Made by a program: the position numbers and the translations under genes
The notes under the pieces: model-generated
Databases searched by the model: none
What the model was told of the DNA's origin: nothing
The model's input: the letters and a program-made list of their open reading frames with translations, nothing else
UHGV virus genome: UHGV-0142988
Reading direction: 5' to 3' (one strand)
Origin: a virus
DNA: 10,260 nucleotides
Shown here: piece by piece, positions 807 to 10,260 of the stretch
Layout: each line of letters opens with the position of its first letter
Numbering within the stretch: the stretch's first letter is position 1

Positions 807-1041
807 GAAGTCATGGTATAAGGTATATATCAAAGAATTAAATACACCGAATATCATTAAAAGTCAGTGTAAATATAAATGCGATTATCTATTAGTAAAG
901 GCATACACAGGATCAGTCGCAATGGCAATCGTGCAGGACTACGTTGTCGAGTTTGAAGAAAATTTCCGTCCTGTATACTACAACAAATTGGAGGGAGGTG
1001 TTCCTATTGACAACAAAAAAGTCTTATTTGAAGAAGAGTAA
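784..1041 (+). CDS. Hypothetical protein (86 aa from internal ATG; track ORF begins at 760)
   Basis: GGAGGG RBS ~6 nt upstream of the ATG at 784; overlaps the 3' end of the previous gene; protein-like composition. Confidence 0.45.
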   Translation: MSRPLNSKKSWYKVYIKELNTPNIIKSQCKYKCDYLLVKAYTGSVAMAIVQDYVVEFEENFRPVYYNKLEGGVPIDNKKVLFEEE

Positions 1042-1648
1042 ACCACAAGGTCTTATAAGAACAAAAGACGATTATACGCCGCTTGCTCTCGAGTTAACAT
1101 GGGATATGAAAGACGTTAGAAAAGAGTATTCACGGTTAAGATCAATCTGGCGTAAACGTTATGAAAGATTACTGAAATCTGACTATAAAGATATCAACCT
1201 TGTAACGGATCGACCGATCCAACGTTACAAGCAGTTGAAAGATATAACAAGTGATAGAGAACTCTATCACTTGTTATCTGAACTATCAACTATTATAGGA
1301 TCAGATCGAACTACAGTAACAGGATTGAAAAAACGGGAAAAAGAGCAGATGGAACACATCAACGATGTGTATGGAACAGAGTTAAAAACGCACGAAGATT
1401 TATTAAATTTTGGACGTTTCATGGAACAGTTACGGGATTTTGCATCTGATAGAATATACGATTCTGATTTTGCAGTTGATTTATATTCTGATGGTGAAAA
1501 GCTGAGTACGGGCAAAATGTTAGAGCTATACAAGGAATTTTTGAAAACTGGATCACGTAACATCGAAAAATTGAAATCTGGCATAGCAAAGAAAGAAAAA
1601 GCGAAACGTCAGAAGAGGAAAGCAGGCAAACGTAAACGTAGGAGGTAA
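1007..1648 (+). CDS. Candidate terminal protein (~213 aa if started at TTG 1007; track ORF 944..1648)
   Basis: Directly upstream of, and translationally coupled to, the protein-primed DNA polymerase (its stop lies in the polymerase RBS). Strongly basic C-terminal tail KKEKAKRQKRKAGKRKRRR. GGAGGGAGGTG lies ~6 nt upstream of TTG 1007. Function is from synteny, not homology. Confidence 0.45.
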   Translation: MTTKKSYLKKSKPQGLIRTKDDYTPLALELTWDMKDVRKEYSRLRSIWRKRYERLLKSDYKDINLVTDRPIQRYKQLKDITSDRELYHLLSELSTIIGSDRTTVTGLKKREKEQMEHINDVYGTELKTHEDLLNFGRFMEQLRDFASDRIYDSDFAVDLYSDGEKLSTGKMLELYKEFLKTGSRNIEKLKSGIAKKEKAKRQKRKAGKRKRRR

Positions 1649-1651
1649 CAC

Positions 1652-3733
1652 ATGGAAAATCTGTATACTATTGACACATATAATTATAATAGAATACGGA
1701 ATTTACCATGTTTACATGATACTAGGTCTAACAAAGGAAGTAAAAAAGCAAAAGGTTATAAAAATTGTCTGTGTGCTTTCGATATCGAAACAACTAGATT
1801 GGAAGATATCGAGCAGTCAATAATGTATATCTGGCAGTTTTCAATTCTTTTTCTTGATGATTTACATGTTGATACGATAATTGGAAGAACGTGGACAGAA
1901 TTTGAGTTATTTCTTGATAATCTTATGAATGACGATAACTATGCATATTATATGATTTTTGTTCATAATCTTTCATATGAATTTCAGTTTTTGCGTGGTA
2001 TATATACATTTTCACCGGATGAAGTTTTTGCCATAAAATCACGTAGAATATTGAAATGTGAAATGTTAGAGCGTTTCGAGTTTCGTTGCTCATATTTACA
2101 AACTAATATGTCACTAAATACGTTTACCTCAAAAATGAAAGTAAAACATCAGAAATTATCTGGTGAAAAATTCGATTATAGTAAAAAGCGTTTTCCATGG
2201 ACAGAACTAACCGATTATGAAATAAAGTATAGTACATACGACACGATTGGACTAGTTGAAGCAATGTATAAACGTATGATACTGTCAAATGACAATCTAT
2301 ATACACTACCATTAACGTCAACCGGTTATGTACGTCGTGAAACGAAAAAAGCCATGTATGGTTGGTCACGAAAACACAAGGATATATTTCCCACTATAGA
2401 TGTTTTCGATCTGCTAGAGGAGGCGTTTCGGGGCGGAGATACTCACGCTAACCGTTATTACTCAGGAACCGTGATACGTGCATATGGTAAAAATATTCTA
2501 GGAATCGGTTCATATGATAGGTCATCCTCTTATCCTGACGTTGTGTTGAATTGTGTTTTCCCGATGACACGTTTTGTATATATCGGATCAATAGATGAAT
2601 CTGATATAGATAAGAAACTGGATAGAGGAAAAGCACTCTTATTCCGATGTAAAATAACAGGTATTGAGCAGATCGACAAGTATTACGGATCGCCCTATAT
2701 TTCATATTCAAAATGTAGAAATGTTTCATGTGAAACACTTGACAATGGGCGTATTTTAAGTGCTGACTATATTGAAATAACGCTCACTGATATTGATTAT
2801 GAGATAATGAAACGTGAGTACAAATGGAAACATTTTGAAATAACAGAGTGTTATGAGAGTAAATACGGAGCATTGCCAGAACCGTTGAAAGACATTTTCC
2901 GTAAATATTATACTGACAAAACAGAGTTAAAAGGAATCGTGGAACAGGAACTTTTCTACAACTTGCAAAAGGCTTTGCTTAACGCTGGCTATGGAATGAT
3001 GGTTCAATCACCCGTGAAACAGTCGTTAATATTTACAGAATCGGCAGAAAACATATATACAGTTGATGAAAATGTTTCACGTGAAACATTACTCACTAAA
3101 TATAACAGAACAGCTTTCTTGCCTTATCAATGGGGTGTTTGGGTAACAGCATGGGCACGCCAGCGATTGAAAGAGGGTATAAACATAGTTGGAGATCGTT
3201 ACGTTTACAGCGATACGGATTCAGTAAAATATATAAAAGTAAGAGGTGATAATATTGACGAGTTATTTGATAGATACAATTCTGAGAGAAAAGAGCAAAG
3301 TATCTCCAATTCCGCATACGCAACAGACCGTTATGGCGTTAAACATTATATGGGGGTGTATGAATTCGAGGATACGTATACTGAATTCTCCACCATTGGT
3401 ACAAAAAAATATGTCTATAGAACTAAAGATGGAAAACTACACGCAACAATCGCAGGAGTTAATAAAAAGCTTGCACCGGATGAGTTGGAAGAACATGGAG
3501 GAATTGAAGCTTTCAAAACTGGATTTACCTTTTTACGATCAGGAGGAACTGAAAGCGTGTACAATGACGTTCCTTATGGGGATTACACCGTGGAAAATCA
3601 TGTTTTAAAAATTACACAAAATGTAGTTATCAGACCGTCAACTTACACAATAGGAATAACAGATGAGTACCGTAGGATTTTGGCAGACGCAAGAACATTA
3701 AAAGAATTTAAATATACTTTTGACAAAAATTAA
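1652..3733 (+). CDS. Protein-primed family-B DNA polymerase (693 aa)
   Basis: AGGAGG RBS. Exo I FDIETT, Exo II HNLSYEF, Exo III YSTYDTIGLVEAM, motif A YDRSSSYP (Dx2SLYP-like), motif B KALLNAGYG (Kx3NSxYG-like), motif C YSDTDS, KxY in TIGTKKYVY. Confidence 0.95.
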   Translation: MENLYTIDTYNYNRIRNLPCLHDTRSNKGSKKAKGYKNCLCAFDIETTRLEDIEQSIMYIWQFSILFLDDLHVDTIIGRTWTEFELFLDNLMNDDNYAYYMIFVHNLSYEFQFLRGIYTFSPDEVFAIKSRRILKCEMLERFEFRCSYLQTNMSLNTFTSKMKVKHQKLSGEKFDYSKKRFPWTELTDYEIKYSTYDTIGLVEAMYKRMILSNDNLYTLPLTSTGYVRRETKKAMYGWSRKHKDIFPTIDVFDLLEEAFRGGDTHANRYYSGTVIRAYGKNILGIGSYDRSSSYPDVVLNCVFPMTRFVYIGSIDESDIDKKLDRGKALLFRCKITGIEQIDKYYGSPYISYSKCRNVSCETLDNGRILSADYIEITLTDIDYEIMKREYKWKHFEITECYESKYGALPEPLKDIFRKYYTDKTELKGIVEQELFYNLQKALLNAGYGMMVQSPVKQSLIFTESAENIYTVDENVSRETLLTKYNRTAFLPYQWGVWVTAWARQRLKEGINIVGDRYVYSDTDSVKYIKVRGDNIDELFDRYNSERKEQSISNSAYATDRYGVKHYMGVYEFEDTYTEFSTIGTKKYVYRTKDGKLHATIAGVNKKLAPDELEEHGGIEAFKTGFTFLRSGGTESVYNDVPYGDYTVENHVLKITQNVVIRPSTYTIGITDEYRRILADARTLKEFKYTFDKN

Positions 3734-3781
3734 CATATGTGTTATAATTCATGTAAAGAGATATTACAAGGAGGTGATAAT

Positions 3782-4036
3782 ATGAAAATTACACGTTCAT
3801 TAACAGTTAACAAGATCAACGTTATCTGCTACGATCCTGAGAATAAGTGTGAGTTTGTACAGGAAGTTGGTTTGATCGGAAATCTTACTGATGAGCAGAT
3901 CAGCAAAGAGATTAAAAAAAGAAATTTTGGAATTGTTATTGATTGGGAAAGAACATCAGAAGAAACAAAATTATACGGAATGGATGCCGAAGTGTTTTTA
4001 AAAAATGCAATCATTATTAAAGAAAAGGAGAACTAA
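3782..4036 (+). CDS. Hypothetical small protein (84 aa from internal ATG)
   Basis: AGGAGGTG RBS ~6 nt upstream of the ATG at 3782; sits between polymerase and ATPase genes. Confidence 0.55.
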   Translation: MKITRSLTVNKINVICYDPENKCEFVQEVGLIGNLTDEQISKEIKKRNFGIVIDWERTSEETKLYGMDAEVFLKNAIIIKEKEN

Positions 4037-4039
4037 ATC

Positions 4040-4474
4040 ATGGCAAAGAATTATACTATCATTAAATCATCGGGAAACCTTGATACCTATTCAGAATATG
4101 AACTCATCGAGTCACCTGCAATCGTTTCACTTAAAAACGTAGAAAACAAAGGACTTATCTGTGTTGGAGCGTGGGTGAAATATCTTACCACCGACAATAT
4201 CGGAAATGAAATAACCTGCATTTCAGTGCAGGACGCAAACACAGGAGAGGTATTCTCAGGTCAGTCAGCACCTTTCAGAGAAACATTCGAGGCTGTTACC
4301 GATCGTATTTCTGACATGGACGAAGCTCCAGAAATGTTTTTCATCGAGGTTCTTCATAGACAGTCAAAGTCAGGTCGTGATTATCTTATGTGCGCACTTG
4401 TTTCCCCGGATCGTGCTTTTGCCCGCATGGGATATACTGAAAAGAACATTCCTATGCCAGAGCCCCAGAAATAA
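4040..4474 (+). CDS. Hypothetical protein (144 aa); an SSB or DNA-binding role is only a positional guess
   Basis: AAGGAGA RBS before the ATG at 4040; tightly packed with neighbours; no motif recognised. Confidence 0.6.
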   Translation: MAKNYTIIKSSGNLDTYSEYELIESPAIVSLKNVENKGLICVGAWVKYLTTDNIGNEITCISVQDANTGEVFSGQSAPFRETFEAVTDRISDMDEAPEMFFIEVLHRQSKSGRDYLMCALVSPDRAFARMGYTEKNIPMPEPQK

Positions 4475-4475
4475 T

Positions 4476-5525
4476 ATGTTATCGTTATACGAAAATAGCG
4501 GGTATCTATCGATACCCGCTATTTTAGGATATGGACAAAAGTTTAATTACATCTGGGGTGGCCGTGGTACGGGGAAAACTTACGGTGCTCTTAAATACTG
4601 TATTGAACATAAAAAAATTTTTGCTTATATGCGATCATTGCAAACACAAATTGATATGATTAAAATTCCAGAACTTTCACCTTTTAAAAAATTAAATCGT
4701 GATTTAGGATGGTCAATATATCCGAAAAGTGTCGGGAAAAATATTGCTGTGTATTATAATGCAGAAATTGACGAAAATGGTAAAATAAAATATACTGGAG
4801 ATATACTCGGTTATTCCATAGCGTTAAATACATTTGCCAATTTACGAGGTTTTGATGCATCAGACGTTGAGATAGGAATATATGATGAATTTATCCCCGA
4901 AAAACGTGAACGCAAAGTTGAAAATGCTGGATATGCTTTTAAAAACGCATATGAAACAATGAATCGAAACCGTGAACTTGATGGAATTAATCCGATACAG
5001 TTTTTATTGTTTTCTAATTCTGAAAGTTTATCATGTGATATGTTTATAGAGAATAATTTAATGGAAAAAGTATCGAGCATGGATATTAATAAACAATCTA
5101 TGTCTATTATACGTGATAGAGGTATTGGACTTTTTAACTTGTATGATTCGCCGATTTCTGAAAAGAAAAAAGACACAGCTCTGTATAAAATGTCTGGATC
5201 AGATTCAGCATTTAACAGGATGGCACTAGGAAATGAATTTTATTCCGCTGATTATTCAGGAATTAGAAGCATGAACATTAAAGAACTGATACCACTATGT
5301 AAAATGGACGCTATTACAATATATCAGCACAAGAGAAAAGACTTAATATATGTAACACGGCACAGCTCTGGTACACCGCCAGAGTATTCCAATACAGATA
5401 AGGATGTAAAAGCTTTCAGACGAGATTTTATTTATTTATGGGATATGTATTTATCAAACAAGGTGCTGTTTGAGGATATCACAAGCAAGTCCCTATTTGA
5501 GATTTATTTTAAAAATAAATATTGA
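4476..5525 (+). CDS. P-loop ATPase, phi29 gp16-like DNA encapsidation ATPase candidate (349 aa from the ATG right after the upstream stop)
   Basis: Walker A GGRGTGKT near the N-terminus and Walker B EIGIYDEF about 110 residues later. Size and motif spacing fit phage packaging ATPases of the ASCE/FtsK-HerA class. Confidence 0.75.
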   Translation: MLSLYENSGYLSIPAILGYGQKFNYIWGGRGTGKTYGALKYCIEHKKIFAYMRSLQTQIDMIKIPELSPFKKLNRDLGWSIYPKSVGKNIAVYYNAEIDENGKIKYTGDILGYSIALNTFANLRGFDASDVEIGIYDEFIPEKRERKVENAGYAFKNAYETMNRNRELDGINPIQFLLFSNSESLSCDMFIENNLMEKVSSMDINKQSMSIIRDRGIGLFNLYDSPISEKKKDTALYKMSGSDSAFNRMALGNEFYSADYSGIRSMNIKELIPLCKMDAITIYQHKRKDLIYVTRHSSGTPPEYSNTDKDVKAFRRDFIYLWDMYLSNKVLFEDITSKSLFEIYFKNKY

Positions 5526-5671
5526 TTTTGTGTTTTATATCTGATATTATCTTTAATAGAAAGACAAGTGTTCGTGGCACACGTACAACACGTCGGGAGC
5601 GTGGGATCATAAGAATCCAATGTGCATGAGCATGTACAGCTCAAGAATTTGTAACACTTAATCTTTCATCA

Positions 5672-5708
5672 CATATGCAGAGTGTCAAAGCCTGCATATG
5701 TTTTGTTT
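5672..5708 (+). terminator. Candidate intrinsic terminator after the ATPase operon
   Basis: 9-bp stem CATATGCAG / CTGCATATG with an 11-nt loop, followed by TTTTGTTT. Confidence 0.55.
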
Positions 5709-5754
5709 CACGTGAAACATTTATCACCTTTCTTTAATGTTTCACGTGAAACAT
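5704..5754. promoter_or_regulatory. Tandem palindromic operator-like sites: TGTTTCACGTGAAACA (~5704-5719) and ATGTTTCACGTGAAACAT (~5737-5754)
   Basis: Two perfect 16-18-bp palindromes 33 bp apart, directly upstream of a TATAAT-like element (~5774-5779) and the RBS of the gene at 5791. Confidence 0.6.
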
Positions 5755-5790
5755 GTTATATGTTGTGCTAATATATAATGGAGGTGAAAT

Positions 5791-5988
5791 ATGGACGTTA
5801 ACTCATTATCAACTCTTATCAGTAACATTGGTGTGCCTTGCGCCTGCCTTATTGCGACTTTCTATCTTTGGCAGAAAGAAACGGATTCTCACAAAGAAGA
5901 AATGAAACGCATGACAGACGCACTCAACAACAACACTCAGGCACTTACAAAACTCACAGAACATATCACAGGAAGTGAAAAAAAATGA
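5791..5988 (+). CDS. Small single-pass membrane protein, holin-like (65 aa)
   Basis: GGAGGTG RBS; one hydrophobic segment (LSTLISNIGVPCACLIATFYLW) then a charged C-terminal tail; ATGA overlap with the next gene. Confidence 0.55.
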   Translation: MDVNSLSTLISNIGVPCACLIATFYLWQKETDSHKEEMKRMTDALNNNTQALTKLTEHITGSEKK

Positions 5989-6230
5989 CGATTAACTACA
6001 ACAAAAATATCAGAGGTGTGTATATCGTCGCAACGAACACAGGGCCTCTGATGGTCAGGGCAGAGCCTAGTACAGACGGAACAGTTATCGCAGAAATGCC
6101 GAAAAACACAAAATGCATCTGTCTAGGATGCTATTCTGGAAACTGGTATGCAGTCATTTACGAACATGACAGTATCATTTCCACCGGCTTTTCTCACAAA
6201 AATTATCTCAGGAGGGATTATAAGATATGA
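5985..6230 (+). CDS. Stand-alone SH3b-like cell-wall-binding domain protein (81 aa)
   Basis: Pattern GVYIVATNTGPLMVRAEPSTDGTVIAEMPKNTKCICLG...GNWYAVIYEH...GFSHKNYLRR resembles bacterial SH3 domains; no catalytic domain attached. Confidence 0.6.
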   Translation: MTINYNKNIRGVYIVATNTGPLMVRAEPSTDGTVIAEMPKNTKCICLGCYSGNWYAVIYEHDSIISTGFSHKNYLRRDYKI

Positions 6231-6421
6231 CGTTAGACAACTTAATTACACTCATTTCAGCAGGATTCACGAAAGAAGAGATCCTCACAATGTCAGGTAC
6301 AGTCACCCAGCGTGCCCCACAGCCACAGCCACAGCCACAGCCACAGCCACAGCCACAGCCACAGCCACAGCCACAAAATACAAAGCAGAAATTGCAAAAT
6401 CAAGATCTAAATACAAATTAA
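6227..6421 (+). CDS. Small protein with a (PQ)10 linker-like repeat (64 aa)
   Basis: ATGA overlap with the upstream gene; contains the in-frame hexamer repeat. Confidence 0.5.
   Translation: MTLDNLITLISAGFTKEEILTMSGTVTQRAPQPQPQPQPQPQPQPQPQPQNTKQKLQNQDLNTN
6317..6375. repeat. Tandem hexanucleotide repeat (CCACAG) x ~9.8
   Basis: Perfect tandem copies read directly in the sequence; encodes PQPQ... in the 6227 ORF frame. Confidence 0.95.
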
Positions 6422-6608
6422 GTGATATTTTAATTCGTGTAGAAAAAAATAGCCTTTATTTTTATTTGCGTAAATGATTCCTTTACTTTTAGCACTAAAA
6501 GCAAGAAAACTATAATTTTATAATTTTCTTTGTTTAAGGCCAGTAATGTTTTCGGCGTTTCAATTGTCCTCGACGAAGGCCGCTTCCGCGACCTTATCTA
6601 GCCCGTGC

Positions 6609-6965
6609 TCATTGAGAACGATCAACTACCATGTATGTTGGTTGACACAGGCTGCCGCGTTCCTGTAACCAGTAGTAATCAAGATCCGCAACACGCATAT
6701 CCAACCCCGAATCCACACGATTGATCTGTAACCGCAGCCCTACAGTATCTTTGTACGATAAACCAGATTTAACATTGTACTTGTACTTAACCCCGCTTTC
6801 TTCTTCAAAAGATTTGAGATAAGGGGGGATTTGCTTCTGAATTTCTTTCAAACAAATAACTTCCCCATCAATTACGAACGGCTTTTCAGTTTTACCGTCA
6901 GGAATAGTAGCCGCAATTGTGGTTAATGGAACTATCGACAACAGTACTGATAATGCTCTTTTCAT
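6609..6965 (-). CDS. Secreted small protein with N-terminal signal peptide (118 aa from the MKRALS start)
   Basis: AAGGGGA RBS before the internal ATG; MKRALSVLLSIVPLTTIAA is signal-peptide-like with no lipobox Cys; ~20 nt downstream of the partner gene. Confidence 0.6.
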   Translation of the reverse strand: MKRALSVLLSIVPLTTIAATIPDGKTEKPFVIDGEVICLKEIQKQIPPYLKSFEEESGVKYKYNVKSGLSYKDTVGLRLQINRVDSGLDMRVADLDYYWLQERGSLCQPTYMVVDRSQ

Positions 6966-6987
6966 CTGTTCTTCCCCTTGAATATAA

Positions 6988-7599
6988 TCATTGTTTAGAA
7001 CAAATTTGTGTAATGGTTGCATTATGGTTAAATTCAACATCAATTACTTTTATAGTATTATCATTAAGTACAGATACAAAATAATTACTTGACGAATTTC
7101 CGTACTTCCTTGAACCATCTGCTGCAATCTTGTTGAATTTAGCAGTATACACACTATCTTTATCGCCGGGAATTGGCATTCGACTGATTAATTCATTATC
7201 GGAAATAGTATAATAAATTAAAATTCCTTTATCTGAATAGTAACCTGAATCGCTTTTTGTTCCCTGTCGAGTTTGTATTATTGCATCGAACTTATCGCAT
7301 TTATAAACATTGGTTTTGGCCTTTTCAGTACTGGTAGACGTTGAAGCCTTTACATCAGTACTTTTATCTTGTGAAACAACCCCGGAACCGATACCTACCG
7401 AAACGACAAAGACAATAAAACTCATGCCTAACGACGTAATCAAAGTACGGAACTTTCCCCGACCTTTATTTCTGGAATAGTTTGAAACTTTCCTGAAAGT
7501 AAGTACTGCAAGGATCACACAAATGATGAAAACGACAAGCCCGGCCATAAAATCCCTCAAACGTTGTGTATCAAAGGCAATCATAGTATCACTTCGCAA
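6988..7599 (-). CDS. Two-TM membrane protein with Ser/Thr-rich ~130-aa extracytoplasmic domain (203 aa, or 198 aa from ATG 7584)
   Basis: Hydrophobic segments AGLVVFIICVILAVLTF and LITSLGMSFIVFVVSVGIGSGVV separated by a basic loop; TTG start in the track with an in-frame ATG 5 codons later. Confidence 0.6.
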   Translation of the reverse strand: MRSDTMIAFDTQRLRDFMAGLVVFIICVILAVLTFRKVSNYSRNKGRGKFRTLITSLGMSFIVFVVSVGIGSGVVSQDKSTDVKASTSTSTEKAKTNVYKCDKFDAIIQTRQGTKSDSGYYSDKGILIYYTISDNELISRMPIPGDKDSVYTAKFNKIAADGSRKYGNSSSNYFVSVLNDNTIKVIDVEFNHNATITQICSKQ

Positions 7600-7601
7600 T
7601 A

Positions 7602-7624
7602 CATTGATCGATTAAAGCGATCAA
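7602..7624. promoter_or_regulatory. Palindrome ATTGATCG-attaaag-CGATCAAT in a divergent control region (7600-7700) that also carries three ATCAAT copies
   Basis: 8-bp inverted repeat just upstream of the leftward gene start and upstream of the rightward leader. Confidence 0.35.
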
Positions 7625-7699
7625 TTTTTGATTTTCGATCGGTTAAATCTATCAATATCTATTAATTGAAGACAAATCAATAGGTAAAAACGATCAGAC

Positions 7700-8100
7700 G
7701 TTGGTCAGTACTTCGGAAACACCAGAAGTATGGTTTGGGTCTGCCGTTTAAACGCCCTCAGAAAACCGCTAAGGTCTCTTTATCGCATATGGCTTGGGAT
7801 TTCAGCCTTTGGCTAAAATCGCTTTCAGGGGGGCTTCTTGTGCGTTTTGTCGGGAACACCATCATGGAGGGGGATAAATCGGATCGAAGTCGCTTCGCTC
7901 TGGTCAGTACTGGAAGGGTTAGCTTATCTGGCGAGGGAAGATGAATTGCCAGGCTTCATGAAGATGGTTGGTTTTGTGGACAAGAAGAACTGCCGTTTTG
8001 AGTATTCCCCCTCACACCCAACAAACCTACCCATTAGCAAGGGGGAGTACTTTCTCGTAGTATACAGAACGAATAAATTCTTTGTATACTTCCGTTTTAT
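7700..8100 (+). ncRNA. Candidate structured 5' leader / cis-regulatory RNA (class unassigned)
   Basis: ~400 nt without a convincing ORF, visibly more GC than flanks. 12-bp stem (~8001-8012 / 8040-8051, one G-U pair) with a C/A-rich 27-nt loop, then an AT-rich hairpin (~8059-8090) plus U-tract just before the downstream start. The 11-mer TGGTCAGTACT occurs twice (~7703, ~7901). Confidence 0.35.
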
Positions 8101-8111
8101 CCTAAAGCGAT

Positions 8112-8801
8112 TTGATTATGGACGAGAATAATAAAGAAGTTATTGAAATAAGACCAGAAGATAAGGACTTTTTCGCAGAATTTATTGATTGTGAAGGTCC
8201 AATTATCCAAGATTCAATTGATCATAAAAAAATCACCCTCGCACTTGATAAAGCCCACGACATAAGAAAGTTTGAAATAGATCTCTATTGGAAGCGTGCT
8301 ACATACTTCTTCGCATTCTTCACTGTAATAACAGCTGCATTTGGTTATTTGTTCACCCATGACAACTATACTTTCTTAGCCCCTGCACTTGCGATCATTG
8401 GTTCTGTTTTTGCTTTATGTTTTTGTTATGTGAATATCGGTAGTAAGTATTGGCAAGAAAACTGGGAGTTTATAATTGATAAAATTGAATATTATGTCAC
8501 AGGAAACCTTTATAAACTTTTCTTCTTCGAAAACCATAGAACCAAACGCCCATCAGTCACTAAGATTAATATATTTCTAAGCAAGCTAATTATAGCTACA
8601 TGGTACGCTTGCTTTATACTTTCCATGCACCAGATATGGAATCAAAGCATGGTATTAAATGTCTCTTATATTATCCTTACCATATATAGCACTGGAACGA
8701 CATTATATTACTGCGATAAAACTGTTGCAGACATATCGAACAATGATAAAGAATCACCACGATTCTTTAGATTCAGAAATCCTAATTACATAAAATCATA
8801 A
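8112..8801 (+). CDS. Multi-pass (about 4 TM) membrane protein with ~60-aa soluble N-terminal domain (229 aa; probable ATG at 8118)
   Basis: Four hydrophobic segments (ATYFFAFFTVITAAFGYLF; FLAPALAIIGSVFALCFCYVNI; INIFLSKLIIATWYACFILSMH; MVLNVSYIILTIYSTGTTLYY); weak RBS. Confidence 0.65.
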   Translation: MIMDENNKEVIEIRPEDKDFFAEFIDCEGPIIQDSIDHKKITLALDKAHDIRKFEIDLYWKRATYFFAFFTVITAAFGYLFTHDNYTFLAPALAIIGSVFALCFCYVNIGSKYWQENWEFIIDKIEYYVTGNLYKLFFFENHRTKRPSVTKINIFLSKLIIATWYACFILSMHQIWNQSMVLNVSYIILTIYSTGTTLYYCDKTVADISNNDKESPRFFRFRNPNYIKS

Positions 8802-9201: not shown

Positions 9202-9669
9202 TTAAACAATGGTTCGTAGATATGCAATCAGATCTTTCGCTGAGGCATTACTGTTCAATAATTCCTGTACTGCGTTCTTCTGTTCGTCGGTTAATGGCTT
9301 ACCAGGCAATGCTTTCTTTAGTCCACATAGCGTACCACCTTCTTCTACAAACTTATCCAATGCTTTAGCAACTGCGGTACAGGCTAATTTGTACTTCTCG
9401 ATAGATGATTCACTTGCTGCAAATTTCTTCATCTGATCTGAACGGGTTAAGGTAAGATAATACTTAACCTGTACTTTTGAAAGCTCTGTAGCGTGTTTGA
9501 CGATGTAGAAGACATCTTTAACAGGTAACTTGTACTTTCCCAATGATTTACACTCTTGAATCGTCTGGTTAATTATTAGAGTTGCTTCTGATGTTAGGCC
9601 ACTGTAAGTAACACGTTTTAGTGCTTCTTCTAACTTTTTATTGTTATAAATCCTTTCTTTTTTTGCCAT
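9202..9669 (-). CDS. Hypothetical protein (155 aa)
   Basis: Clean ORF with ATG start; protein-like composition; no motif recognised. Confidence 0.6.
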   Translation of the reverse strand: MAKKERIYNNKKLEEALKRVTYSGLTSEATLIINQTIQECKSLGKYKLPVKDVFYIVKHATELSKVQVKYYLTLTRSDQMKKFAASESSIEKYKLACTAVAKALDKFVEEGGTLCGLKKALPGKPLTDEQKNAVQELLNSNASAKDLIAYLRTIV

Positions 9670-9759
9670 GATAAATACCCCTATGGAAGATGTTAATTAA
9701 TATTGGCCTGATGTATTCCTAATACTCAGGCTTTTTATTTAAGAAGAAAATGGGTGGGG

Positions 9760-10026
9760 TTATACTCCACGTACCTTCTTGAACCATTCACGATACTCTG
9801 GCACTTTATTTTTGCGTAAATTGCTAATGAAATCTTGATCGCAATTAACTTTAAGTAAATTACAAATCCTAGCACTTGTCATATCACTTAGTAGGATATT
9901 CTCGTACTGAGAGAATGTTAGTTGAATGAAATTAACCTTTTCTTTCTTTCGAACTGATTTGTTCAATGACTTCCTATTAGTCCTGATTTTATTTTTTGTT
10001 TTTATTTTACCGTTTTTCTTTGACAT
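9760..10026 (-). CDS. Small basic protein with possible C-terminal helix-turn-helix (88 aa)
   Basis: GGAGTG RBS before the ATG; very basic N-terminus (KKNGKIKTKNKIRTNRK) followed by an HTH-like segment. Confidence 0.55.
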   Translation of the reverse strand: MSKKNGKIKTKNKIRTNRKSLNKSVRKKEKVNFIQLTFSQYENILLSDMTSARICNLLKVNCDQDFISNLRKNKVPEYREWFKKVRGV

Positions 10027-10260
10027 TTTGTCACTCCTCTAAATTAAAATTCATCTCATGGTTAACCTCCTACGGCTGTTGTTTATGTTCGATTGGCTAT
10101 ATGTTAACGGGCAAAATTGCCCCAATCAAGGAATAGTTGCAACTTTTTCTTGACAAGATCATTACTATTCAAGTCAAAAAATCATATATCATTTAGGCAC
10201 TATCTTTGGGTAATGACTCCAACTTATTGATAGTGTTTTATGTTCAGATAATGCCCGATG

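Follow-up and report, generated by a model that had tools for sequence, protein, structure and literature searches.

The stretch of DNA that we analyzed, 10,260 nucleotides (nt) of the UHGV virus genome UHGV-0142988 (hereafter, the window), is a 36% G+C island that carries on its minus strand, at 9760-10026, an open reading frame (ORF) for a protein of 88 amino acids (aa) starting at the ATG 10026-10024. Ahead of this gene lies a two-codon minigene, ATG AGA TGA (Met-Arg-stop), which an earlier note on this DNA had pointed out together with a Shine-Dalgarno (SD) sequence, AGGAGG, and a 6-nt spacer. Direct reading of the minus strand gave GTAGGAGGTTAACCATGAGATGAATTTTAATTTAGAGGAGTGACAAAATG and confirmed this arrangement, and the distance from the stop of the minigene to the main ATG, previously put at ~25 nt, measured 24 nt. 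We refer to the minigene as ORF1 and ask here what it may do for the gene that it precedes.

The protein served by this leader has a basic N-terminus and a helical C-terminal domain, and its AlphaFold2 (AF2) model had a predicted local distance difference test (pLDDT) score of 83.5, with residues 1-13 disordered. We could not confirm the earlier description of the gene as helix-turn-helix (HTH)-like: The protein had no match in Pfam, PHROG, or NCBIfam, and its confident AF2 model gave nothing significant in Foldseek comparisons with PDB and BFVD, where the top nonsignificant matches were HTH-containing and HNH-associated domains.

Anatomy of the leader

On the minus strand, the core of the first SD, AGGAGG (10071-10066; hereafter SD1), is followed by the spacer TTAACC (10065-10060) and by ORF1 (10059-10051), with its codons ATG (10059-10057; ATG#1), AGA (10056-10054), and TGA (10053-10051). 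ORF1 thus consists of an SD, a start, exactly one sense codon, and a stop, as defines a leader minigene, where the placement in the 5′ leader follows from the predicted promoter described below. ATG#1 lies 33 nt, start to start, or 11 codons, upstream of the main ATG and shares its frame, with a second in-frame stop (TAG, 10041-10039) in between. When extended to AGGAGGT (10065-10071), SD1 makes a 7–base pair (bp) match to the 3′ end of the 16S ribosomal RNA, with a duplex energy of −10.9 kcal/mol with ACCUCCUUA as compared to −8.6 kcal/mol for the main SD. Its spacing to ATG#1 is an optimal 4 to 5 nt, and a second start, ATG#2, follows at 9 to 10 nt. Searching both strands of the window, we found the pattern AGGAGG-N4-9-ATG-NNN-stop a single time. 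The same pattern occurred on average 0.0145 times in 2000 dinucleotide-preserving shuffles, 1.4% of which contained at least one copy, and a chance match at the scale of the window is unlikely. No further copies of the SD1/ORF1 or A/U-tract motifs were present elsewhere in the window.

The minus strand reads GTAGGAGGTTAACCATGAGATGAATTTTAATTTAGAGGAGTGACAAAATGTCA here. The leader folds with a minimum free energy of −9.5 kcal/mol (z = −0.56 versus shuffles), i.e., into no stable structure, and SD1 should therefore be accessible; the main SD is unpaired as well. Because the leader folds no better than its shuffles, we dropped riboswitch, attenuator, and SD-sequestration models. Leader-peptide attenuation of the trpL, erm, or cat type was dropped too, since there were no alternative hairpins, the main SD was unpaired, and the promoter/terminator scan gave no terminator-like site in the leader. 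Scanning 9600-10260 against Rfam 15 at permissive thresholds returned only chance-level small nucleolar RNA and small RNA matches (E ≥ 2.5), far under the gathering scores.

The stop of ORF1 overlaps, as ATGA (10054-10051), with the start of a second upstream ORF (uORF2) of seven codons, ATG AAT TTT AAT TTA GAG GAG TGA (10054-10031). Its start, ATG#2 (10054-10052), is 5 nt away from ATG#1, with both starts on SD1. uORF2 runs across an A/U tract and the main SD and terminates 4 nt before the main ATG, such that stops and starts are found at the close distances that characterize translational coupling both at the ATGA junction and at the 4-nt gap. The A/U tract, ATTTTAATTTA (10040-10050, minus strand), is invariant and separates ORF1 from the main SD, GAGGAG (10034-10039, minus strand), which lies 7 nt before the main ATG. 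Nucleotide diversity (π) across relatives was 0.0 at 10048-10037, and the only RN|WUU (RNase E–like) motifs of the leader are located at 10052-10045, just downstream of ORF1. The tract may act as a site for ribosomal protein S1 or as an enhancer, or it may be an RNase E target.

Beyond what the earlier note described, the leader thus contains the ATGA-nested uORF2, a 39-nt conserved block of which ORF1 is the core (see below), and a 24-aa ORF that starts at a TTG and shares the TGA of ORF1. The latter came from a mechanical ORF list and was rejected, having no SD and a variable upstream part. Programmed frameshifting or readthrough from ATG#1 into the gene was likewise discarded, given the two in-frame stops and the quick termination of the shifted frames, as was antisense coding by a 46-aa plus-strand ORF (9996-10136), where the block displayed no codon periodicity and the flanks were variable.

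Upstream of SD1, a putative promoter consists of a −35 element TTGATT (10124-10129) and a −10 element TAACAT (10101-10106), both on the minus strand and at a spacing of 17 nt. With 8 of 12 positions agreeing with the consensus, it falls below the 9/12 threshold of the consensus scan, in which nothing in the leader was listed. We propose it because both hexamer blocks are conserved (π = 0.051 at 10138-10127 for the −35 block and 0.067 at 10108-10097 for the −10 block) while the spacer (π = 0.25 at 10126-10109) and the first ~25 nt of the leader vary; the −10 region, CGTTAACATAT, is invariant in 16 relatives. The transcript is predicted to start near 10094, which would place everything from SD1 through the main SD within the leader.

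Two side observations concern the same region. An imperfect palindrome, TCAAGAAAAAGTTGCAACTATTCCTTGA, at 10126-10153 (minus strand) overlaps the putative −35 and forms part of a conserved stretch (ATTGTCAA...TATTCCTTGATTG); we regard it as a candidate operator. Position 10157, just preceding a conserved TTGTCAA block upstream of the promoter, is a C in the window and an A in all 30 other Escherichia coli copies and in all aligned relatives; over the 421 nt compared (9760-10180), it is the sole difference between the window and the other E. coli copies.

Conservation and natural variants

The 88-aa protein has 75 homologues. Its close relatives (83 to 100% protein identity) stem from Enterobacter, Klebsiella, Pluralibacter, Salmonella, Dryocola, and metagenomes, and the protein is also on record for Phytobacter, Yersinia, Pantoea, and Morganella. 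In an alignment of 16 distinct sequences, 31 of the 39 columns between SD1 and the main SD (10034-10072, minus strand) were invariant, with π = 0.049. The corresponding values were 0.055 for the first and second codon positions of the coding sequence, 0.236 for its third positions, 0.236 for the early leader, 0.169 for the first 13 codons of the 88-aa gene, and 0.267 for the downstream intergenic region. Comparing variable to invariant columns, the block differed from third positions (Fisher, P = 3 × 10−5) as well as from the early leader (P = 0.004), and it evolved ~5 times slower than neutral-like sites. As judged from these columns, the 39-nt block is under purifying selection.

The leaders of 33 loci collapsed into 10 haplotypes, eight of which have an intact ORF1; these are from Escherichia, Enterobacter, Klebsiella, Salmonella, Pluralibacter, Dryocola, and metagenomes. 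Variation within the block clustered at three sites: C, T, or A stood immediately ahead of ATG#1, the sense codon differed in its first base, and any of the four bases could follow TGA. The first and last of these are the most variable of the block and are positions that would be free under a start/stop model. SD1 was kept in all haplotypes except for AGGGGG (L059) and AGGAGA (L064-67), and the main SD was GAGGAG in 8 of 10 and GAGGAT in the two others (the L013/L061/L068-73 group). uORF2 ended in TGA or TAA in six haplotypes, while its stop was lost in four.

The frame of uORF2 was kept as well, with six of its seven sense codons identical in most haplotypes, as would be expected if uORF2 encoded a functional heptapeptide, MNFNLEE, with ORF1 only modulating the uORF2 start. 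However, codon 2 was N, S, T, or I among the relatives, two of the eight haplotypes that have ATG#2 lost the uORF2 stop, and synonymous positions were as invariant as nonsynonymous ones, which points to constraint at the level of nucleotides and not of the peptide. We give a functional heptapeptide almost no credence.

Two lineages proved particularly informative. The first, a 97-aa variant of the protein (P0047 and P0085; loci L061 and L068-73, with the gene at 3001-3294 in L068), was found in at least 19 contigs from different samples, on islands where a large serine recombinase takes the place of the tyrosine integrase. Here, uORF2 has lost its stop (GAGGATCAA), and the canonical ATG is out of frame owing to a 1-nt deletion near the beginning of the gene, such that the conserved protein, which now begins with MIFNLEDQKNAKY..., can be read only from ATG#2, right beside ORF1. 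The lineage thereby provides natural evidence for ATG#2 as a working start, whether SD1, reinitiation after ORF1, or both serve it. For annotation, the 97-aa "extended" homologues accordingly reflect a real alternative start and not a gene-calling error.

The second lineage, from the Enterobacter cloacae complex (P0048 and P0090; loci L062 and L064-67), comprises at least 24 contigs, and no integrase was called in the 3 kb upstream. Its leader reads AGGAG(G/A)TTAACTATAAGCTGA: Both ATGs are gone (ATA AGC TGA) and SD1 is weakened in most copies, while the leader retains TTAAC together with the A/U tract and the main SD. Hence, the minigenes are dispensable in this lineage, and SD1 decays along with them. 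A third variant, in E. coli S1-INA-02-A (L063, 4001-4111, at the ffs site), is a stub that kept the promoter and ATGAGATGA, with SD1 and the entire 88-aa gene absent. In that locus, the ATGAGATGA stub is followed by ~250 nt of AT-rich DNA and then by a homologue of the 155-aa gene that lies next to the 88-aa gene in the island.

These variants bear on the idea that the block is a nucleic acid signal in which the mini-ORF is incidental, acting either as a DNA operator or as an RNA enhancer or standby site, i.e., an SD-like landing pad for the 30S subunit combined with an A/U tract for S1. Conservation indeed extends beyond what the uORFs need, to the invariant TTAAC spacer, to all synonymous positions of uORF2, and to the stretch without any diversity at 10048-10037, and the E. 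cloacae–complex lineage held on to TTAAC and the A/U tract after both ATGs were lost. A palindrome, GGTTAACC, at 10067-10060, and a GTTAAC in the −10 region could form an operator pair, the two GTTAAC sites being 42 bp, or four helical turns, apart. Furthermore, SD occupancy sufficed and translation was not needed in the LEE4 leader, as that work is recounted in PMC8708949. Against such a signal, the number of GTTAAC sites in the window (5) is not significantly above expectation (3.1), the outer bases of the palindrome vary (GGTTAACT, GGTTAAAC, and GATTAACT), the block is unrepeated elsewhere in the window, and no regulator is known. Moreover, 8 of 10 haplotypes have ATG#1, TGA, and ATG#2, and decay of SD1 is restricted to leaders without the ATGs. 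We therefore consider a pure nucleic acid signal unlikely.

More distant homologues (55 to 70% identity) and the nearest outgroup (L012 and L014) have no minigenes and carry a small gene upstream instead. This partner encodes either a 49-aa protein, which by eye looks ribbon-helix-helix (RHH)–like, or a lysine-rich protein of 55 to 73 codons of an "EWVKKR" type; such partner ORFs were seen at L003-L006 and L015-L039. In 22 of 24 distinct distant loci, the stop of the partner ORF (49 to 73 codons) was located −4 to +10 nt from the start of the homologue, a spacing so tight that the family appears to be habitually coupled in translation to an upstream ORF, and the arrangement suggests a conserved two-gene module. 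The uORF2 stop, with its 4-nt gap, reproduces this geometry in the clade of the window. A separate 5-codon uORF in L012 (~850-880), ATG AGG AAA CAT AAA TGA, which ends in an ATGA overlap with the main ATG, is probably a chance occurrence, its sister L014 having ATA for the ATG.

The partner genes also bring up the possibility, which the earlier note had raised in the form of a vestigial start, that ORF1 is debris without a present function, left when an N-terminal extension of the 88-aa gene decayed or when a partner was lost. ATG#1 is indeed in frame with the main ORF, the outgroup homologues (L012 and L014) begin with ATG AGA AGA, distant relatives have partner genes upstream, and the leader stub of E. 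coli S1-INA-02-A shows that a leader remnant can persist. A vestigial start is nevertheless not supported: The block evolves slowly, every haplotype retains the two in-frame stops (TGA and TAG), and the frame from ATG#1 into the gene is closed in all relatives. In addition, the proteins equal those of the outgroup in length, even though ATG#1 lies 11 codons upstream. A tblastn search of the intergenic regions between the integrase and 88-aa genes gave no credible remnant of an RHH-type or EWVKKR-type partner (best E ~ 0.02 to 0.06, in a tiny database), which leaves an origin as the stub of a partner gene unsupported. Overall, we regard debris as extremely unlikely.

A possible ribosome-loading cassette

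We tentatively propose that ORF1 opens a leader cassette that is translated and acts in cis on the mRNA of the 88-aa gene, with a positive effect on that gene, a reading to which we assign a probability of roughly 0.4. The strong, unstructured SD1 (AGGAGGU) would load ribosomes at ATG#1, and these would terminate after Met-Arg at the UGA, which overlaps the second AUG (AUGA). Ribosomes that reinitiate there, or that start directly from SD1, would then read uORF2 across the A/U tract and the main SD and terminate 4 nt before the main AUG, where they could reinitiate. As a net result, ribosomes would be delivered to the main start, and the A/U-rich leader would be covered and shielded from RNase E. 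In the clade of the window, the cassette would replace the upstream partner gene to which homologues elsewhere are coupled.

This proposal builds on what we observed directly: the anatomy of the leader, the strength and accessibility of SD1, the selection on the block, the stop-start coupling across the family, and the use of ATG#2 in one lineage. From these observations, we infer that the predicted promoter drives the leader, that ribosomes read both ORF1 and uORF2, and what direction and size the effect on the main gene may have. The earlier note had suggested that the element could be a translational control element, to be checked by its conservation in relatives. ORF1 turned out to be intact in most haplotypes and in several genera, such that the refuting condition given in the note, a lack of conservation, did not hold. 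This, together with the selection on the block and experimentally proven precedents (PMC3262186 and PMC8708949), leads us to favor translational control as the more probable role. Its assessment of the element as likely minor seems fair.

A more elaborate version, in which a three-step ribosome relay acts as a minimal surrogate for a lost partner gene and preserves an obligatory coupling, with the rare-in-host AGA possibly adding a sensitivity to tRNA-Arg(UCU) or peptidyl-tRNA hydrolase (Pth), strikes us as improbable.

Comparison with known minigenes indicates that the ORF1 cassette is most likely a further member of the small group of leader minigenes already described in bacteria and does not represent a new mechanism. 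Characterized two-codon members are very few (LEE1, axe-txe, ycbK, and lambda bar), and their mode and direction of action are debated. The enterohemorrhagic E. coli (EHEC) LEE1 leader contains, upstream of ler, a two-codon minigene, AUG AAA UAG, without which ler is not fully expressed (Islam et al. 2012, PMC3262186). Like ORF1, it has a single sense codon between an AUG and a stop, preceded by an SD, and lies in the 5′ leader of a small, regulator-type gene on an island acquired horizontally. It is also conserved among relatives and cis-acting, and its effect depends on where its stop is placed with respect to the next start. The LEE1 minigene, however, lies ~124 nt upstream in a leader of ~170 nt, as compared to a stop 24 nt upstream here, and ORF1 differs in overlapping a second uORF that reaches the main start; similarity of the two at the sequence level is not to be expected.

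The two-codon minigene mg2 of axe-txe acts positively in cis (Kedzierska & Potrykus 2021, PMC8708949), and, according to the summary of the work of Lodato et al. in that paper, a six-codon mini-ORF in the LEE4 leader has a strong SD that protects the AU-rich leader from RNase E. Both resemble the present case in having a strong SD and a very short ORF in an A/U-rich leader, where ribosome occupancy is proposed to shield the mRNA and raise translation, and in axe-txe the minigene and the main gene share a frame, as they do here. In contrast to ORF1, these minigenes are located inside or after another gene, without an ATGA-nested second uORF. In Sinorhizobium meliloti, glnK is preceded by an ATGA-coupled 4-aa uORF (PMC13285730). 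Such ATGA overlap of stop and start, with a short gap to the next start, is also seen at our locus, which differs from glnK in having two chained couplings, from ORF1 to uORF2 and from uORF2 to the main gene. In its strong SD and in being too short to yield a product, ORF1 further recalls "start-stop" sites (Meydan et al., 10.1101/520783); we do not apply that label (minimal ORF) to it, since one sense codon, AGA, intervenes.

A different kind of action is known from the lambda bar and synthetic AGA minigenes of the Guarneros and Hernandez-Sanchez laboratories, in which AGA was studied for the drop-off of peptidyl-tRNA-Arg4 (PMC2490762). If ORF1 acted similarly in trans, then Met-Arg-stop would release peptidyl-tRNA-Arg(UCU) and drain the rare AGA tRNA or Pth, thereby coupling the island to host translation or harming the host. 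With its two codons, an SD that is strong, AGA as the last sense codon, A/U-rich sequence after the TGA, and an integrase-bearing mobile element as its carrier, ORF1 does resemble bar and shows the sequence features of toxic minigenes, and AGA minigenes are known to accumulate peptidyl-tRNA-Arg4, the shorter ones more so. The toxicity of bar, however, is a trans effect seen upon overexpression in Pth-deficient cells. The promoter here looks weak. ORF1 ends in UGA, a stop with which minigenes were reported to be less toxic than with UAA, and the axe-txe minigene was nontoxic although its features are those of toxic minigenes. Furthermore, the sole sense-codon change in an intact ORF1, AGA to CGA in the Dryocola locus (L002), retains Arg and uses a different tRNA, and AGA is an ordinary codon in the 36% G+C island (16.4 per 1000 codons; 30% of Arg codons). 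The CGA variant and the frequency of AGA in the island speak, if weakly, against a role tied to one particular tRNA, and we deem a bar-like trans action very unlikely.

A serious rival to ribosome loading, although one that we hold to be less probable than not by a clear measure, is that the leader acts as a decoy or attenuator. SD1 would then capture ribosomes on the dead-end ORF1, and ribosomes on ORF1 and uORF2 would compete sterically with initiation at the main start, keeping the 88-aa protein low. SD1 is the stronger of the two SDs, and the distances of 33 nt from start to start and 24 nt from stop to start, close to one ribosome footprint, fit inhibition as well as loading. Two precedents point in this direction. 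The LEE1 minigene was inhibitory when its stop was placed 29 bp from the next start, lowering expression two- to fourfold as deduced from SD/AUG up-mutations (PMC3262186). In Bacillus subtilis ycbK, as reviewed in PMC8708949, dipeptide mini-ORFs located 5 to 10 nt upstream of another start and sharing one SD with it have a negative effect. By that description, the ycbK arrangement is like that of ATG#1 and ATG#2, 5 nt apart on SD1, and is matched exactly in the 97-aa lineage, where ATG#2 is the start of the protein; the competing start is the main gene in ycbK and the 7-codon uORF in the window. Occlusion of a main ribosome-binding site by an upstream one and "start-stop" attenuation have both been described, and the lineage that lacks both ATGs retains an intact gene and main SD. 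Conversely, the occlusion cases in PMC13285730 span 3 to 25 nt from start to start as opposed to 33 nt here, a simple decoy has no need for the ATGA overlap, the 4-nt gap after uORF2, or the tight coupling across the family, and ATG#2 is productive in one lineage.

Several further points weigh against a ribosome-loading cassette. The predicted promoter, at only 8 of 12 consensus positions, went unreported by the scan. The main gene has a good SD of its own in an unstructured leader and no obvious need for coupling. The invariance of TTAAC and of all synonymous positions of uORF2 signals a nucleotide-level constraint that is not assignable to ORF1 alone, and the relatives amount to only 10, nonindependent haplotypes. 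Moreover, a quarter of the haplotypes that keep ATG#2 (2 of 8) have lost the uORF2 stop, and a successful lineage, the E. cloacae–complex one, lives without either ATG.

The same variants, i.e., the intact nested form, the lineage with both starts decayed, and the lineage in which ATG#2 became the protein start, make up, together with a family that is coupled to a real upstream gene, a small and convenient system for telling ribosome delivery, protection of an A/U-rich leader, and decoy action apart. The leader of the 88-aa gene should not be treated as neutral intergenic DNA in annotation, while its practical importance is limited.

The surrounding island

The island adjoins ffs, the gene for the signal recognition particle (SRP) RNA, in 30 of 5426 complete E. 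coli genomes. In strain 162.2, the order is ybaY, MGMT, ffs, a tyrosine integrase, ~660 nt, the 88-aa gene, the 155-aa gene, RipA/8xMP, and further genes. Whether the recombinase of the island is a tyrosine integrase or a serine recombinase, it is followed by one module, made up of the promoter, the leader, and the 88-aa and 155-aa genes, a position that hints, speculatively, at a role in the control of the element itself. A hairpin directly after the integrase gene suggests that the 88-aa gene has its own transcript. No match to the promoter and leader module was found in phage and plasmid collections or, as an exact pattern, in viral contigs, which indicates that the module is confined to these chromosomal islands.

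A further promoter-like site, TTAACA-17-TATCAT, lies at 9668-9696 (minus strand), just upstream of the 155-aa gene, and agrees with the consensus at 10 of 12 positions, so that the 88-aa and 155-aa genes may not form a simple operon. The ATTAATTAA part of this site is kept in all relatives, and the TTAACA −35 is replaced in four (L055, L057, L059, and L062).

Between the integrase and 88-aa genes, direct repeats of ~AAAGTACAAAGATA(C/G)T (L001, 13190-13330, minus strand) could be iterons that bind a protein; a remnant of these is left in the window at 10196-10208. In the Dryocola locus (L002), the GTACAAAA unit is expanded into a long tandem array. An IS1 end occupies 10209-10260, 79 nt upstream of the putative −35, and continues past the end of the window. 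It sits within the last AAAGTACAAAGATAGTGCC repeat and splits the 88-aa gene from the integrase. In all 30 island-bearing complete E. coli genomes, the match to the window ended at 10208, and none had the IS1 junction.

The cargo of the island (944-8801) is almost entirely uncharacterized and includes a RipA/8xMP membrane protein, 693-aa and 234-aa proteins without a family, the latter with a weak BrxC-like match (E = 5 × 10−4), and a 382-aa protein that resembles podovirus Gp16 packaging ATPases (Pfam, E = 2 × 10−8). In other genera, the cargo of the relatives differs; among it are CI-like repressor/HTH_35 modules and a reverse transcriptase.

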